64,000 nucleotides of DNA from Escherichia coli. GTDB lineage: Bacteria; Pseudomonadota; Gammaproteobacteria; Enterobacterales; Enterobacteriaceae. The notes beneath the pieces were generated by a model. That model saw nothing but the letters and a program-made list of their open reading frames with translations, was not told the DNA's origin and searched no databases. Positions within the stretch are counted from its first letter, which is position 1. Each line of letters opens with the position of its first letter. The position numbers and the translations under genes are program-made. The stretch is taken from assembly GCF_003790525.1 (NCBI RefSeq), contig NZ_CP033635.1, one strand, 5' to 3'. This document shows positions 26,739 to 34,509 of this stretch, piece by piece.

Positions 26739-27441
26739 TACGTGGAACAGATTGGCGCTCTTGATTTTCGCCGTTTTATCGCTGCTGGTGGCGAGTGAAT
26801 TGCAGGCAGGAGTGGTGGTCGGCGGAACGCGATTTATCTTTCCGGCAGACAGAGATTCGATATCTATTTTATTGACTAATACCAGTCAGGAATCCTGGCT
26901 TATTAACAGTAAAATCAATCGCCCAACGCGTTGGGCTGGGGGTGAAGCGTCGACAGTACCAGCACCATTACTGGCCGCTCCGCCACTTATTCTCCTGAAG
27001 CCCGGTACTACAGGCACATTGCGCTTGCTGAGAACGGAAAGCGACATCTTGCCCGTGGATCGCGAAACGCTATTTGAGTTAAGCATTGCCAGCGTGCCAT
27101 CCGGCAAAGTTGAAAATCAGAGCGTAAAAGTGGCGATGCGCTCGGTATTTAAACTGTTCTGGCGACCCGAAGGTTTGCCGGGCGACCCGCTGGAAGCTTA
27201 TCAACAATTACGCTGGACACGGAATTCGCAGGGTGTACAACTCACTAACCCAACGCCTTACTACATTAACCTGATTCAGGTGAGCGTAAATGGTAAAGCG
27301 TTAAGTAATGCGGGAGTTGTGCCACCTAAAAGCCAGCGTCAGACAAGCTGGTGTCAGGCTATAACACCGTGTCATGTCTCCTGGCGGACGATAAATGATT
27401 ACGGCGGGTTGAGTGCAAAGAAGGAGCAAAATCTGCCCTGA
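26731..27441 (+). CDS. ycbF: Second periplasmic pilus chaperone YcbF, 236 aa
   Basis: PapD-like chaperone; start overlaps the ycbV stop. Confidence 0.87.
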   Translation: MTNTWNRLALLIFAVLSLLVASELQAGVVVGGTRFIFPADRDSISILLTNTSQESWLINSKINRPTRWAGGEASTVPAPLLAAPPLILLKPGTTGTLRLLRTESDILPVDRETLFELSIASVPSGKVENQSVKVAMRSVFKLFWRPEGLPGDPLEAYQQLRWTRNSQGVQLTNPTPYYINLIQVSVNGKALSNAGVVPPKSQRQTSWCQAITPCHVSWRTINDYGGLSAKKEQNLP

Positions 27442-27451
27442 AACAGGCTCG

Positions 27452-27465
27452 GAAAACGTTTGCGC
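27452..27465 (+). promoter_or_regulatory. Candidate PurR operator upstream of pyrD
   Basis: gaaaacgtttgcgc matches the palindromic PurR box core (GCAAACGTTTTC); pyrD is a known PurR regulon member. Confidence 0.5.
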
Positions 27466-27551
27466 TTTTTTTGCCACAGGTCAATTCCCTTTTGGTCCGA
27501 ACTCGCACATAATACGCCCCCGGTTTGCACACCGGGAATCCAGGAGAGTTC

Positions 27552-28562
27552 ATGTACTACCCCTTCGTTCGTAAAGCCCTTTTCCAGCTCGATCCAGAGC
27601 GCGCTCATGAGTTTACTTTTCAGCAATTACGCCGTATTACCGGAACGCCGTTTGAAGCACTGGTGCGGCAGAAAGTGCCTGCGAAACCTGTTAACTGCAT
27701 GGGCCTGACGTTTAAAAATCCGCTTGGTCTGGCAGCCGGTCTTGATAAAGACGGGGAGTGCATTGACGCGTTAGGCGCGATGGGTTTTGGATCTATCGAG
27801 ATCGGTACCGTCACGCCACGTCCACAGCCAGGTAATGACAAGCCGCGTCTCTTTCGTCTGGTAGATGCCGAAGGTTTGATCAACCGTATGGGCTTTAATA
27901 ATCTTGGCGTTGATAACCTCGTAGAGAACGTAAAAAAAGCCCATTATGATGGCGTCCTGGGTATTAACATCGGCAAAAATAAAGATACGCCGGTGGAGCA
28001 GGGTAAAGATGACTATCTGATTTGTATGGAAAAAATCTATGCTTATGCGGGATATATCGCCATCAATATTTCATCGCCGAATACCCCAGGACTACGCACA
28101 CTGCAATATGGCGAAGCGCTGGATGATCTCTTAACCGCGATTAAAAATAAGCAAAATGATTTGCAAGCGATGCACCATAAATATGTGCCGATCGCAGTGA
28201 AGATCGCGCCGGATCTTTCTGAAGAAGAATTGATCCAGGTTGCCGATAGTTTAGTTCGCCATAATATTGATGGCGTTATTGCAACCAATACCACGCTCGA
28301 TCGTTCTCTGGTTCAGGGAATGAAAAATTGTGATCAAACCGGTGGCTTAAGTGGTCGTCCGCTTCAGTTAAAAAGCACAGAAATTATTCGCCGCTTGTCA
28401 CAGGAATTAAACGGTCGCTTACCGATCATCGGTGTTGGCGGCATTGACTCGGTTATCGCTGCGCGTGAAAAGATTGCTGCGGGGGCCTCACTGGTGCAAA
28501 TTTATTCTGGTTTTATTTTTAAAGGTCCGCCGCTGATTAAAGAAATCGTTACCCATATCTAA
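27552..28562 (+). CDS. pyrD: Dihydroorotate dehydrogenase (quinone), 336 aa
   Basis: Matches PyrD from [21 protein letters not shown]; class 2 DHODH. Confidence 0.95.
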
Positions 28563-28594
28563 TTATTTCTTCGAATTCCTCTTTATAAGATAAT

Positions 28595-28628
28595 CAGGGC
28601 TTTATTTTAAGCCCTGGTTGTTTTATAT
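28595..28628 (+). terminator. Intrinsic terminator of pyrD
   Basis: Stem cagggct...agccctg followed by gttgtttt. Confidence 0.6.
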
Positions 28629-28735
28629 TCATCACTGTTGCTTATTTAGACATTTTGTACTTTTATTGTTGAGGTTATTAAGCGAAGCGACAATGGATTG
28701 TGTTGCTGCGGTTTTATAGGGTAGGGGAGAGGCAA

Positions 28736-29278
28736 ATGCGAATTAAACCAGACGATAACTGGCGTTGGTATTACGATGAAGAGCACGATCGAATGATGCT
28801 CGATTTAGCCAATGGTATGCTATTTCGCTCACGTTTTGCGCGCAAAATGTTGACTCCAGATGCCTTTTCTCCCGCAGGCTTTTGCGTTGACGACGCCGCG
28901 CTCTATTTCTCATTTGAAGAAAAATGCCGCGATTTTAATTTATCTAAAGAACAAAAAGCCGAACTGGTGCTTAATGCGCTGGTAGCAATTCGTTATCTCA
29001 AACCGCAAATGCCGAAAAGCTGGCATTTTGTTTCCCATGGTGAAATGTGGGTGCCCATGCCGGGCGATGCGGCCTGCGTTTGGTTGAGCGACACTCACGA
29101 GCAAGTCAATTTGCTGGTCGTTGAATCTGGCGAAAATGCCGCACTATGCCTGCTGGCACAACCCTGCGTTGTTATAGCGGGTCGCGCGATGCAGCTGGGC
29201 GACGCCATCAAAATCATGAACGACAGGCTGAAACCGCAGGTTAATGTTGACAGCTTCAGCCTCGAACAGGCAGTTTAA
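28736..29278 (+). CDS. zapC: Cell division protein ZapC (YcbW), 180 aa
   Basis: Matches ZapC from [24 protein letters not shown]. Confidence 0.9.
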
Positions 29279-30384
29279 CGCGTCAGCTTAAGTGCAGTCT
29301 TCGGTACACAACTACAGCAAAGAATAGTGCCATCATCACCCATTGCTGATTTTTTCAGCGGCGTGACTTCGCCTTCTAAAAGCTGAACACGGCAACTTCC
29401 ACAAATGCCCGCGCGGCAAGAATAAGGGATACGAATTCCCTGATTTTCTAATTGCTCCAGCAGCACCTGTTGGTTATTTCCACGAAATGCCTGTCCCTGC
29501 CAGTCAATATCTACGTTTGCGTCCGGTTGTTGCGTGATGTTGGCAGTATCATCGGCGGCACCTGCGCCGTAAATTTTAGCTGGAGCCGTTGCCAGAATTT
29601 CCACCTCATCGCCAACGCGAATCACGCCGCTATTACGGGCAATTAAATTCTGACCAAAATCGACATCGCCGTTATCCTGGGCAGTACGGAAAGATTGCAG
29701 CGTTTTTAATGGTTCGCCTGCCGGATGTTTTTGCCCTTTTTCTGGGCTGACGGTGGTGAAAATACAGCGGCTACAAGGCTTAACCACATCAAACACGACA
29801 TCACCAATGCGAATCACTTTCCAGCTATCTTCTTCCCAGGCCGATGCACCGGAAACCACCAGATTGGGGCGGAATTGCTCCATTTTTACACTGGCCGGAC
29901 AACGTTGTTGGAGATCACGTAACGAGGCCTCGTTAGCAAGAAGGTAAGGATAACCATCAGCAAATGACAGGGGTACAGTGTTGTGGCGTTTCACGCGCCG
30001 GGTCATTTGTGGCCCCACCCAGCGTAATTGCACTTCGCGGGAGAAAAATCCACTTAGCCATTTGTTGATCGCGTCTGGCGCAATTCGCGCGGTAAAATGT
30101 GTGCCCCAAACTTCGGTTGGTGCGTCTTGTGTGGCGAAATCAGCAAAACGAACATATGCACTACTGCCATCTGGTGCGGTGAGATGCAAGCCATCATGCA
30201 CGGGTGAAGGAGTAAACCGTACCATTAGCGGAAACTGGCGAGCGGTAATAAACGTACCGTCAGGTTCCGTGATCATAAAGATGCGATCGAAGGCCAGACC
30301 ACTGACATCTGCCAGGGTATGTGTAAGACCAATGCCGCGCATCGATTTAACAGGATGAATAAAAAGCCGGGTTAATGTCGCCAC
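29275..30384 (-). CDS. ycbX: MOSC-domain protein with C-terminal 2Fe-2S ferredoxin domain, YcbX, 369 aa
   Basis: C-terminal plant-type ferredoxin cysteine pattern (CRAGICGSC...C); N-terminal MOSC beta-barrel; stop overlaps the zapC stop. Confidence 0.9.
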
Positions 30385-30481
30385 GGTGCGGTCCTCAAAT
30401 GAAAATAAGCCCTCAACTTTATGACATGACGCGCTTATTAGCTATAATGCGCAACAATTTTCTTAGAGTAAAAGTGACGAT

Positions 30482-32590
30482 ATGAATTCTCTGTTTGCCA
30501 GTACGGCCCGTGGGCTGGAAGAGCTGTTAAAAACTGAACTGGAAAACCTGGGGGCCGTTGAATGCCAGGTGGTTCAGGGTGGGGTCCATTTCAAGGGCGA
30601 CACACGGCTTGTTTACCAGAGCCTGATGTGGAGCCGCCTGGCCTCGCGTATTATGTTGCCGCTGGGCGAGTGTAAGGTTTACAGCGATTTAGACCTCTAT
30701 CTCGGTGTTCAGGCGATCAACTGGACAGAGATGTTTAATCCTGGCGCGACCTTCGCTGTCCACTTCAGTGGTTTGAATGACACCATACGCAACAGTCAGT
30801 ACGGTGCGATGAAAGTGAAAGACGCGATCGTCGATGCTTTCACGCGGAAAAATCTGCCGCGTCCAAATGTTGATCGCGATGCGCCGGATATCCGCGTTAA
30901 CGTCTGGCTGCATAAAGAAACTGCCAGTATCGCCCTTGATCTCAGTGGTGATGGTTTACATCTGCGTGGCTATCGCGATCGTGCTGGTATTGCGCCGATC
31001 AAAGAAACCCTGGCAGCCGCGATTGTTATGCGATCCGGCTGGCAGCCAGGAACACCGCTGCTCGATCCGATGTGTGGTTCCGGTACGTTGCTGATTGAAG
31101 CGGCGATGCTGGCGACCGATCGCGCACCAGGCTTGCACCGTGGACGTTGGGGCTTTAGCGGCTGGGCACAGCATGATGAAGCCATCTGGCAGGAAGTGAA
31201 AGCAGAAGCGCAAACTCGCGCCCGTAAAGGCCTGGCGGAGTACAGCTCCCATTTCTACGGTTCGGACAGCGACGCACGGGTGATTCAACGTGCGCGCACT
31301 AACGCCCGTCTTGCGGGGATTGGTGAACTGATCACCTTTGAGGTGAAAGATGTCGCGCAACTGGCCAATCCGCTGCCGAAAGGGCCGTACGGTACAGTGT
31401 TGAGCAACCCGCCATACGGTGAACGTCTGGACAGCGAACCGGCGCTGATTGCGCTGCATAGTCTGCTGGGCCGAATCATGAAAAACCAGTTCGGTGGCTG
31501 GAATCTCTCTTTGTTTAGTGCCTCGCCGGATCTGCTCAGCTGCCTGCAGCTGCGTGCAGACAAACAGTACAAGGCGAAAAACGGCCCGCTGGACTGCGTA
31601 CAGAAAAACTACCATGTTGCCGAAAGCACACCAGACAGCAAACCGGCGATGGCAGCGGAGGACTACGCCAACCGTCTGCGTAAGAACCTCAAAAAATTCG
31701 AGAAGTGGGCTCGTCAGGAAGGAATTGAATGTTACCGCCTGTATGACGCCGATCTGCCGGAATATAACGTTGCCGTTGACCGTTATGCCGACTGGGTGGT
31801 GGTGCAGGAGTATGCGCCGCCAAAAACTATTGATGCGCACAAAGCGCGTCAGCGTCTGTTCGATATTATCGCTGCAACCATTTCGGTACTGGGGATTGCG
31901 CCAAACAAACTGGTACTGAAAACCCGTGAACGCCAGAAGGGCAAAAATCAGTACCAGAAACTGGGCGAGAAGGGCGAGTTTCTCGAAGTCACCGAATATA
32001 ACGCTCACTTGTGGGTGAACCTGACGGATTACCTCGATACCGGTCTGTTCCTCGATCACCGTATCGCCCGTCGTATGCTCGGTCAGATGAGCAAAGGCAA
32101 AGATTTCCTCAACCTGTTCTCTTATACCGGCAGCGCCACCGTGCACGCGGGATTAGGCGGTGCACGCAGCACCACCACCGTGGATATGTCGCGTACTTAT
32201 CTGGAGTGGGCAGAACGCAACCTGCGTCTGAATGGCTTAACCGGGCGTGCGCATCGCCTGATTCAGGCCGATTGCCTGGCGTGGTTGCGTGAGGCAAATG
32301 AACAGTTCGATCTGATCTTTATCGATCCGCCAACCTTTTCTAACTCAAAACGAATGGAAGATGCGTTTGATGTTCAGCGCGATCATCTGGTGCTGATGAA
32401 AGATTTGAAACGTCTGCTGCGTGCAGGTGGGACGATCATGTTCTCGAACAACAAACGCGGCTTCCGTATGGATCTCGACGGCCTGGCGAAACTGGGACTG
32501 AAAGCACAAGAAATTACGCAAAAAACGCTCTCCCAGGATTTCGCCCGTAACCGCCAGATCCACAACTGCTGGCTGATTACCGCAGCCTGA
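30482..32590 (+). CDS. rlmL: Bifunctional 23S rRNA methyltransferase RlmKL (m2G2445 / m7G2069), 702 aa
   Basis: Two fused methyltransferase modules: N-terminal THUMP plus SAM-binding DPMCGSGT with NPPYGERL motif, and a C-terminal second Rossmann module with DPPTF. Confidence 0.93.
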
Positions 32591-32601
32591 AAGGAATAGT
32601 A

Positions 32602-34509
32602 ATGTCATTAATCAGTATGCATGGCGCATGGCTGTCGTTCAGCGACGCGCCGCTTCTCGATAACGCAGAACTGCATATCGAAGATAACGAACGTGTTTGT
32701 CTGGTAGGTCGTAACGGCGCAGGCAAATCGACGTTAATGAAGATCCTCAACCGTGAACAGGGGCTGGATGACGGTCGCATTATTTATGAGCAAGATTTGA
32801 TTGTAGCTCGTCTGCAACAGGATCCGCCGCGTAACGTTGAGGGTAGCGTTTATGATTTCGTTGCCGAAGGCATTGAAGAACAAGCGGAATATCTGAAACG
32901 CTATCACGATCTTTCGCGCCTGGTGATGAACGACCCGAGCGAGAAAAATCTCAACGAACTGGCGAAGGTTCAGGAACAGCTGGATCACCACAACCTGTGG
33001 CAGCTGGAAAACCGCATCAACGAAGTGCTGGCGCAACTGGGATTAGATCCTAATGTTGCGCTGTCGTCGCTTTCCGGCGGCTGGTTGCGTAAAGCGGCAT
33101 TAGGACGCGCGCTGGTGAGCAATCCGCGTGTATTGCTGCTCGACGAACCGACTAACCACCTGGATATTGAAACCATCGACTGGCTGGAAGGGTTCCTCAA
33201 AACCTTCAATGGGACAATTATTTTCATTTCCCACGACCGTTCGTTTATCCGCAATATGGCGACGCGCATTGTTGATCTCGATCGCGGCAAGCTGGTGACC
33301 TATCCAGGGAATTACGACCAGTACCTGCTGGAAAAAGAAGAAGCCCTGCGCGTGGAAGAATTACAAAATGCCGAGTTCGATCGCAAACTGGCGCAGGAAG
33401 AGGTGTGGATCCGCCAGGGGATCAAAGCGCGCCGTACCCGTAATGAAGGCCGCGTACGCGCCCTGAAAGCAATGCGCCGTGAACGTAGCCAGCGCCGTGA
33501 GGTCATGGGGACGGCAAAGATGCAGGTGGAAGAAGCCAGCCGCTCCGGAAAGATCGTTTTCGAAATGGAAGACGTTTGCTACCAGGTTGACGGTAAGCAA
33601 CTGGTGAAAGATTTTTCTGCCCAGGTTCTACGTGGCGACAAAATTGCCCTGATTGGCCCGAATGGGTGCGGCAAAACCACGCTGCTGAAACTGATGCTCG
33701 GTCAGCTTCAGGCGGACAGCGGGCGTATTCACGTTGGCACCAAACTGGAAGTGGCTTATTTCGATCAGCACCGTGCGGAACTGGATCCCGATAAAACGGT
33801 GATGGATAACCTTGCCGAAGGTAAGCAAGAGGTGATGGTTAACGGCAAGCCACGCCACGTATTGGGCTATTTGCAGGACTTCCTGTTCCATCCGAAACGG
33901 GCGATGACGCCGGTACGTGCGCTTTCTGGCGGTGAGCGGAACCGCTTGCTGCTGGCGCGTTTGTTCCTCAAACCAAGCAACTTATTGATTCTTGACGAAC
34001 CGACCAACGATCTTGATGTCGAAACGCTGGAACTGCTGGAAGAACTGATCGACAGCTACCAGGGCACGGTATTGCTGGTAAGCCACGATCGTCAGTTTGT
34101 CGATAACACCGTTACAGAATGCTGGATCTTCGAAGGCGGCGGTAAAATTGGTCGTTATGTCGGCGGTTATCATGATGCCCGTGGTCAGCAAGAGCAGTAT
34201 GTGGCGCTCAAACAGCCTGCGGTGAAAAAAACCGAAGAAGCCGCCGCGGCAAAAGCAGAAACTGTAAAACGCAGCAGTAGCAAACTAAGCTATAAATTGC
34301 AGCGCGAACTGGAGCAGCTACCGCAATTGCTTGAAGATCTGGAGGCGAAGCTGGAAGCCCTACAGACGCAGGTGGCGGATGCTTCCTTCTTCAGTCAGCC
34401 CCATGAGCAGACACAAAAAGTGCTCGCTGATATGGCTGCTGCAGAGCAGGAGCTGGAGCAAGCCTTTGAACGCTGGGAGTATCTTGAAGCGTTAAAAAAT
34501 GGTGGCTGA
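32602..34509 (+). CDS. uup: ABC-F family ATPase Uup, 635 aa
   Basis: Two ABC cassettes (Walker A GRNGAGKST and GPNGCGKTT) with a C-terminal coiled-coil/DNA-binding tail; 11 bp after rlmL. Confidence 0.94.
   Translation: MSLISMHGAWLSFSDAPLLDNAELHIEDNERVCLVGRNGAGKSTLMKILNREQGLDDGRIIYEQDLIVARLQQDPPRNVEGSVYDFVAEGIEEQAEYLKRYHDLSRLVMNDPSEKNLNELAKVQEQLDHHNLWQLENRINEVLAQLGLDPNVALSSLSGGWLRKAALGRALVSNPRVLLLDEPTNHLDIETIDWLEGFLKTFNGTIIFISHDRSFIRNMATRIVDLDRGKLVTYPGNYDQYLLEKEEALRVEELQNAEFDRKLAQEEVWIRQGIKARRTRNEGRVRALKAMRRERSQRREVMGTAKMQVEEASRSGKIVFEMEDVCYQVDGKQLVKDFSAQVLRGDKIALIGPNGCGKTTLLKLMLGQLQADSGRIHVGTKLEVAYFDQHRAELDPDKTVMDNLAEGKQEVMVNGKPRHVLGYLQDFLFHPKRAMTPVRALSGGERNRLLLARLFLKPSNLLILDEPTNDLDVETLELLEELIDSYQGTVLLVSHDRQFVDNTVTECWIFEGGGKIGRYVGGYHDARGQQEQYVALKQPAVKKTEEAAAAKAETVKRSSSKLSYKLQRELEQLPQLLEDLEAKLEALQTQVADASFFSQPHEQTQKVLADMAAAEQELEQAFERWEYLEALKNGG

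Follow-up and report, generated by a model that had tools for sequence, protein, structure and literature searches.

Does the protein encoded at 29275–30384 of the window (the whole stretch of 64,000 nucleotides that was analysed) carry all that is required to deliver electrons to a molybdenum site, or is it one link of a longer chain? A preliminary description, made from the sequence alone, had named the product YcbX and had taken the fusion of a MOSC module with a plant-type [2Fe-2S] ferredoxin for a self-contained electron-transfer and molybdoenzyme architecture, implicated in the detoxification of N-hydroxylated bases. Our analysis leads to a different answer on one of these points. The open reading frame is almost certainly an intact orthologue of E. 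coli K-12 ycbX (b0947), encoding a cytoplasmic N-reductase of the MOSC/mARC family in which a CysJ-fed path from an Fe-S cluster to molybdenum reduces N-hydroxylated bases.

The identity of YcbX, its domain fusion, cofactors, reaction and electron donor have been known since 2008–2010, and spectroscopy and electrochemistry were added in 2022–2023. The ycbX of the window is an ordinary intact E. coli core gene, and we report nothing new about the gene itself. It is useful as a calibration: the call made from the letters alone had the name, the coordinates and the motif correct, and one point had to be amended.

Reading frame and identity of the gene

The coding sequence of ycbX (29275–30384, minus strand) comprises 369 codons and a TAA stop codon, and starts with a GTG at 30382–30384, as read from the list of open reading frames and the sequence. 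The coordinates had been given exactly, without a strand; it is the minus strand. The frame is uninterrupted over the full 369 amino acids (1110 nt). A Shine-Dalgarno-like GAGGA (30392–30396, minus strand) lies 7 nt upstream of the GTG, and no further in-frame start was found 5′ of the GTG in the sequence before a stop codon is reached. The GTG start is supported by the Pfam search, because the match to the MOSC_N profile begins at residue 1 of the protein and at position 1 of the profile. RefSeq annotation of identical DNA has the same 1110-nt coding sequence.

E. coli SMS-3-5 and many other isolates carry a ycbX with 100% identity to the 1110 bases of the gene. The RefSeq product name of the SMS-3-5 gene is '6-N-hydroxylaminopurine resistance protein YcbX'. 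With this identity to annotated ycbX, and with Pfam and phmmer in agreement, the name YcbX proved right. No NCBIfam model scored above its curated cut-off on YcbX, the best being the YfaE ferredoxin model (57.8 bits, cut-off 75), and the RefSeq name must therefore stem from another kind of rule. All of the NCBIfam matches below cut-off were to ferredoxin domains, and they speak neither for nor against the assignment. Of 5426 complete E. coli genomes, 5425 contain a match over at least 80% of the gene's length, which makes ycbX a core gene of the species; 395 genomes carry it with at least 99% identity to the allele of the window.

K-12 YcbX has the same length (369 aa), the same GTG start, the same succession of MOSC_N, MOSC and Fer2 domains, and the same locus between zapC and rlmL. 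The two proteins are identical at 363 of 369 positions, and the genes differ by 33 nucleotides (97.0% nucleotide identity). The six substitutions relative to K-12 (I5T, A23T, Q53L, R187S, A275G and A368T) are conservative or of surface type, and none of the differences falls on a cysteine, a cofactor ligand or a family-conserved position. The gene order pyrD-zapC-ycbX-rlmL-uup is that of K-12 MG1655, and so is the wider arrangement, with elf/ycb fimbrial genes before pyrD and pqiABC after uup.

Domain architecture and predicted fold

Three Pfam domains, which do not overlap one another, were matched in YcbX (all coordinates on the minus strand). The MOSC_N beta-barrel domain (PF03476) spans residues 1–116 (30037–30384; E=2.2e-32, 111.8 bits against a cut-off of 25) and covers profile positions 1–118 of 119. 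The MOSC domain (PF03473) follows at residues 139–262 (29599–29970; E=3.7e-23, 82.2 bits, cut-off 22.7), and the plant-type [2Fe-2S] ferredoxin domain Fer2 (PF00111) at residues 294–362 (29299–29505; E=2.2e-15, 56.8 bits, cut-off 21). All three matches are far past chance level. The predicted MOSC and Fer2 domains were thus recovered together with MOSC_N, and in the predicted order: the MOSC module is N-terminal and Fer2 is C-terminal. Residues 263–293 (29506–29598), rich in Ala, Gly, Asp and Gln, form an inter-domain linker without a Pfam domain. No flavin or NAD(P)H domain was detected by Pfam anywhere in the 369 residues, and the linker, at about 30 residues, leaves no room for one.

Comparison with the sequences of solved structures gave human mARC1 as the nearest relative of residues 2–265 (6fw2, 7p41 and 29aj, E about 4e-32; phmmer with chain 6fw2_A, E=4e-32). 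The C-terminus was aligned by phmmer with cyanobacterial and plant ferredoxins (E down to 2.4e-10), and Plasmodium ferredoxins were also aligned.

An AlphaFold2 model of YcbX, built on a 23-sequence alignment, is confident overall (mean pLDDT 91.9, pTM 0.74). Confidence dips only in the linker 263–293, where the mean pLDDT is 64 for residues 271–280 and 74 for residues 281–290. In the model MOSC_N is predicted to adopt a beta-rich fold like that of human mARC1. Foldseek comparison of the model with the PDB returned mARC1 first (7p41 and 29aj, E about 3e-23, query-normalised TM-score 0.67), followed by dozens of ferredoxins from plants and cyanobacteria (TM-score normalised to the target, 0.63–0.73). 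The copy of the PDB that was searched contained no solved structure of YcbX, the best matches being human mARC1.

Relatives of YcbX

A HMMER scan of 1.84 billion cluster representatives yielded 9150 relatives of YcbX at E≤1e-3. Architecture classes were defined on the best 150 of these 9150, and the domains were confirmed by Pfam on representatives. Among the best 150, Class A proteins (n=19, about 370 aa) consist of MOSC_N, MOSC and Fer2. Class B (n=28, about 600–650 aa) has MOSC_N, MOSC, FAD_binding_6, NAD_binding_1 and Fer2, and Class C (n=84, about 265–285 aa) has MOSC_N and MOSC only. The YcbX of the window falls in Class A. Pfam detected FAD_binding_6 and NAD_binding_1 in the relatives P0130, P0133, P0136 and P0163 and neither of them in the YcbX of the window.

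The long proteins of YcbX type, the type of Vibrio VCA0924 and VPA0411, share the MOSC_N and MOSC N-terminus and the C-terminal Fer2, and are 35–46% identical to YcbX over the core. They differ in having FAD_binding_6 and NAD_binding_1 between MOSC and Fer2, which gives a full NAD(P)H-to-Mo chain in one polypeptide (PMC5818509, PMC10637980); the protein of the window is without these domains and relies on CysJ. Class B relatives have thus fused the flavin reductase too, whereas E. coli YcbX is one link that still needs CysJ.

Human mARC1 and eukaryotic ARC have a homologous core of MOSC_N and MOSC, the CSRC motif is present in both mARC and YcbX, and the N-reductive chemistry, including reduction of 6-N-hydroxylaminopurine (HAP), is likewise shared (PMC10637980). 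mARC lacks a ferredoxin domain, has at its N-terminus a region for membrane anchoring or targeting, and is supplied with electrons by separate cytochrome b5 and NADH-cytochrome b5 reductase (PMC10637980). In YcbX, MOSC_N begins at residue 1 and a fused [2Fe-2S] domain stands in place of cytochrome b5. YcbX is consequently a homologue of eukaryotic mARC/ARC and not a member of that group, as Fer2 is fused and the N-terminal extension is lacking.

E. coli YiiM is also a MOSC molybdoenzyme that reduces HAP, and its invariant C120 lies in a comparable P-x-S-x-C context (PMC3831636, PMC5818509). A helical bundle at the C-terminus of YiiM takes the place of MOSC_N, the protein lacks a ferredoxin domain, and its proposed electron donor is Fre, not CysJ (PMC3831636, PMC5818509). 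In fold and in the ligand pattern C-x4-C-x2-C...C, the ferredoxin domain of YcbX agrees with the plant-type [2Fe-2S] ferredoxins that occur as separate proteins, and with E. coli YfaE. In YcbX, Fer2 is a domain and not a free protein, with 25 residues between the third and fourth ligands owing to a deletion of 4 residues relative to the aligned cyanobacterial ferredoxin.

A 723-aa relative (P0260) combines MOSC_N and MOSC with a C-terminal GNAT acetyltransferase domain, a fusion that goes unmentioned in the reviews consulted.

Residues predicted to bind the cofactors

A regular-expression search of the translation found the CxxGxCxxC pattern once in YcbX, as C323-R-A-G-I-C328-G-S-C331. The codons of these three cluster ligands (C323-x4-C328-x2-C331) lie at 29392–29418 on the minus strand. 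Three cysteines follow C-terminally, at positions 356, 357 and 359. In phmmer alignments with the ferredoxins 1roe and 1iue it is C357 (codon 29314–29316, minus strand) that is aligned with the fourth ligand of plant-type ferredoxins, in ...LTC.../...LLC... motifs. The signature CxxGxCxxC...C which had been read from the letters is therefore present at C323–C331, with the later C357 in the place of the fourth ligand. Its plant-type [2Fe-2S] character was borne out by the Fer2 match and by the ferredoxin matches of phmmer and Foldseek.

In the 23-sequence alignment of Class A no substitution occurs at C323, C328, C331 or C357, and the Fe-S ligands are invariant wherever homologues carry Fer2. 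C356 and C359 vary, being commonly replaced by Ala, Ser or Thr. It is confirmed that the ferredoxin signature in YcbX cannot be a chance pattern.

The putative active-site motif of the MOSC domain is C204-S-R-C207 (29764–29775, minus strand; C207 codon 29764–29766), which aligns with CSRC of mARC1. C207 presumably corresponds to mARC1 Cys273, a position that we took from our own residue count on an assumed mARC1 length of 337 aa. The surrounding P-x-S-x-C pattern matches Q115, R117, S118 and C120 of E. coli YiiM (YiiM residues from PMC5818509). In characterised relatives the molybdenum cofactor is bound by the MOSC domain, and YiiM C120 has been called the invariant MOSC cysteine (PMC5818509). 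From the alignment with mARC1 and the match to the context of YiiM C120 we infer that C207 is the molybdenum ligand of YcbX. Among the best 150 of the 9150 relatives, C207 was kept in 128 of 131 diverse proteins, and without exception in the 112 of Classes B and C. C204 was kept in 126 of the same 131, and those that have Ser or Ile at this position retain C207.

Three YcbX-like proteins of about 365–380 aa (P0124, P0141 and P0145) have kept the four Fe-S cysteines and lack the equivalent of C207, their motifs being KPCSRY, TLHPRF and KNCTCY. Judged by these sequences they may contain diverged or catalytically dead MOSC domains.

Electron path and reaction

The gene identity, the domains, the fold, the ligand conservation and the lack of a flavin domain come from the present analysis, and the cofactor of YcbX, its reaction and its dependence on CysJ are taken from published work. 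The reduction of HAP to adenine by YcbX and YiiM depends on the molybdenum cofactor but not on mobA (PMC3831636, PMC5818509). Both activities work with a cofactor for which mobA-dependent formation of MGD is unnecessary and which may be simple Mo-MPT (PMC3831636, PMC5818509). For K-12 YcbX, binding of Mo-molybdopterin, and not of the MGD form, and of a [2Fe-2S] cluster is known (PMC3831636, PMC10637980). EXAFS of YcbX indicated a sulfite-oxidase-like site, in which Mo is coordinated by a dithiolene, one Cys and two oxo ligands, and catalytic electrochemistry of the enzyme has also been published (PMC10637980). The substrates of the pathway are HAP, 2-amino-HAP, N4-hydroxycytidine and hydroxylamine (PMC3831636). 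The proposed role in the detoxification of N-hydroxylated bases is thus borne out by the literature (PMC3831636, PMC5818509, PMC10637980).

The flavin reductase CysJ is the specific electron donor of YcbX (PMC3831636, PMC5818509). Its requirement as a separate flavoprotein comes from the genetics of Kozmin et al. (2010), as related in PMC3831636, PMC5818509 and PMC10637980. The ferredoxin domain has been described as filling, in YcbX, the role that cytochrome b5 has for mARC (PMC10637980). These data bear directly on the one claim of the preliminary description that had to be corrected: electron transfer is not self-contained, as YcbX is without a flavin or NAD(P)H domain and CysJ is needed as the NADPH-linked donor. 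Beside the catalytic Mo domain, YcbX itself has just the ferredoxin domain, the final electron carrier of the chain. In about 50 kb of the region that was checked, cysJ was absent among the annotated genes.

From the published chemistry of YcbX and the CysJ donor, a path from NADPH through CysJ and the [2Fe-2S] cluster to Mo is the most likely one for the gene product of the window. MOSC_N and MOSC would together form the site for a mononuclear Mo-molybdopterin, with the conserved cysteine, probably C207, ligating Mo. The Fer2 domain would hold one [2Fe-2S] cluster on C323, C328, C331 and C357. NADPH would feed the flavins of CysJ, a separate protein, and from there electrons would pass to the [2Fe-2S] cluster of YcbX, then to Mo and finally to the substrate. 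The N-hydroxyl group of HAP, of related N-hydroxylated bases and of hydroxylamine would be reduced by two electrons. The products would be adenine or the corresponding amine, by which a toxic mutagen would be removed.

Alternative explanations

The chemistry and the electron path would be unchanged if HAP detoxification were a side activity and YcbX in truth served to reduce a different N-oxygenated or similar compound, for example hydroxylamine, an N-hydroxylated metabolite or nitrite, which algal crARC is reported to convert to NO. We hold this possible, though rather unlikely. Generic N-reductive activity has been seen in every MOSC protein tested, and the occurrence of HAP under physiological conditions has been doubted (PMC10637980); the pathway has several substrates besides HAP (PMC3831636), and ycbX, flanked by convergent zapC and divergent rlmL, is not part of an operon that would hint at a specific pathway. 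Set against this, hypersensitivity to base analogues is the only phenotype given for ycbX mutants in the literature consulted (PMC3831636), and nothing that we computed backs an alternative substrate. That the MOSC domain might instead be a sulfur carrier acting in cofactor maturation, as in the C-terminus of eukaryotic Moco sulfurase, with the ferredoxin as an accessory, is suggested by the name of the family, which derives from Moco sulfurase, by the 2002 prediction of 'metal-sulfur cluster biosynthesis proteins' (in the words quoted in PMC10637980), and by the conserved cysteine, which could in principle bear a persulfide. The EXAFS and electrochemistry of YcbX and the reduction of HAP to adenine (PMC10637980, PMC3831636) speak for a reductase and make such a role very improbable. 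Membership among the Moco sulfurases (MOS/ABA3/HMCS) was not indicated either, as Pfam found no aminotransferase class V/NifS match, and hence no desulfurase domain of that kind, in the 369-aa protein, and its nearest structural relative is the reductase mARC1.

A third reading concerns the allele and not the enzyme. The six substitutions relative to K-12, among them R187S between the family-invariant E185 and W188, could be taken for signs of decay or loss of activity. No residue holds a majority at position 187 of the family consensus, the frame is intact and full-length, and none of the conserved residues or ligands is missing; the same allele recurs at 100% identity in many independent isolates, and 395 genomes are at or above 99%. 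An inactive allele is thus hardly credible, and it was rejected on the ground that no ligand or conserved residue is changed. We infer that the ycbX allele of the window is functional like the published YcbX, with N-reduction fed by CysJ as the preferred reading of its product. Nothing in our results contradicts this reading.

Neighbourhood of ycbX

The stop codons of the convergent genes zapC and ycbX overlap in the sequence TTAA at 29275–29278, which is used on both strands: the TAA of zapC (plus strand) occupies 29276–29278, and that of ycbX (minus strand) is read from 29277 to 29275. The 4-nt overlap is likewise annotated in SMS-3-5 and in K-12. As there is no intergenic space for a terminator between the two genes, their transcripts must overlap. 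The pair zapC-ycbX is listed among the convergent 'excludons' in a 2025 RNA-seq survey (PMC12288877). It is conceivable, although improbable, that the natural substrate of YcbX is not HAP, or that the overlap of stop codons couples a cell-division factor with a base-analogue detoxifier by transcriptional interference. If true, another substrate or interference between zapC and ycbX would add biology to a known enzyme, and the identity of the gene would stay the same.

Terminator-like sites (hairpin and T-run) were counted in 29100–30600. There were 8 of them, compared with 1.8 ± 1.5 in shuffled sequences, and all were inside coding sequence. They include a palindrome at 29425–29441, which counts on both strands. 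A hairpin at 29457–29473 (plus strand) lies downstream of zapC, within the 3′ end of ycbX. The predicted RNA fold of the 211 nt distal to zapC (29270–29480, plus strand) had z=−1.96, and we claim no terminator from it.

On the other side of the gene, the spacer between ycbX and rlmL (30385–30481) is 97 bp long, compared with 243 bp in K-12 MG1655. A sigma-70 promoter-like site (ATGACA-16 nt-TATAAT, 30421–30448, plus strand) is near consensus, with 11 of 12 matches, and faces rlmL (rlmKL). In a simple promoter scan, the minus strand yielded no sigma-70-like site for ycbX. Within the K-12 spacer a 146-bp insertion, flanked by a direct duplication of TCTTAG, separates the promoter-like site from the start of rlmL. 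Of 5426 E. coli genomes, 5121 contain 1–4 copies of the 140-bp core of this insert, and none of the five matches listed had an annotated feature under it. The K-12 insert looks like a small mobile repeat of MITE type. Its 140-bp core was not found in the window, and this strain therefore has an empty site. The reading of ycbX is unaffected by the overlap with zapC, the spacer, the repeat and the promoter observations.

An Rfam search of 27000–33000 gave nothing in or around ycbX and only the PyrD leader (RF02373; 27484–27557, plus strand; 97.9 bits, E=1.4e-16), immediately upstream of pyrD. The mechanical list of open reading frames starts pyrD at a TTG at 27525 and zapC at a GTG at 28700; the annotated starts are at 27552 and 28736, respectively.
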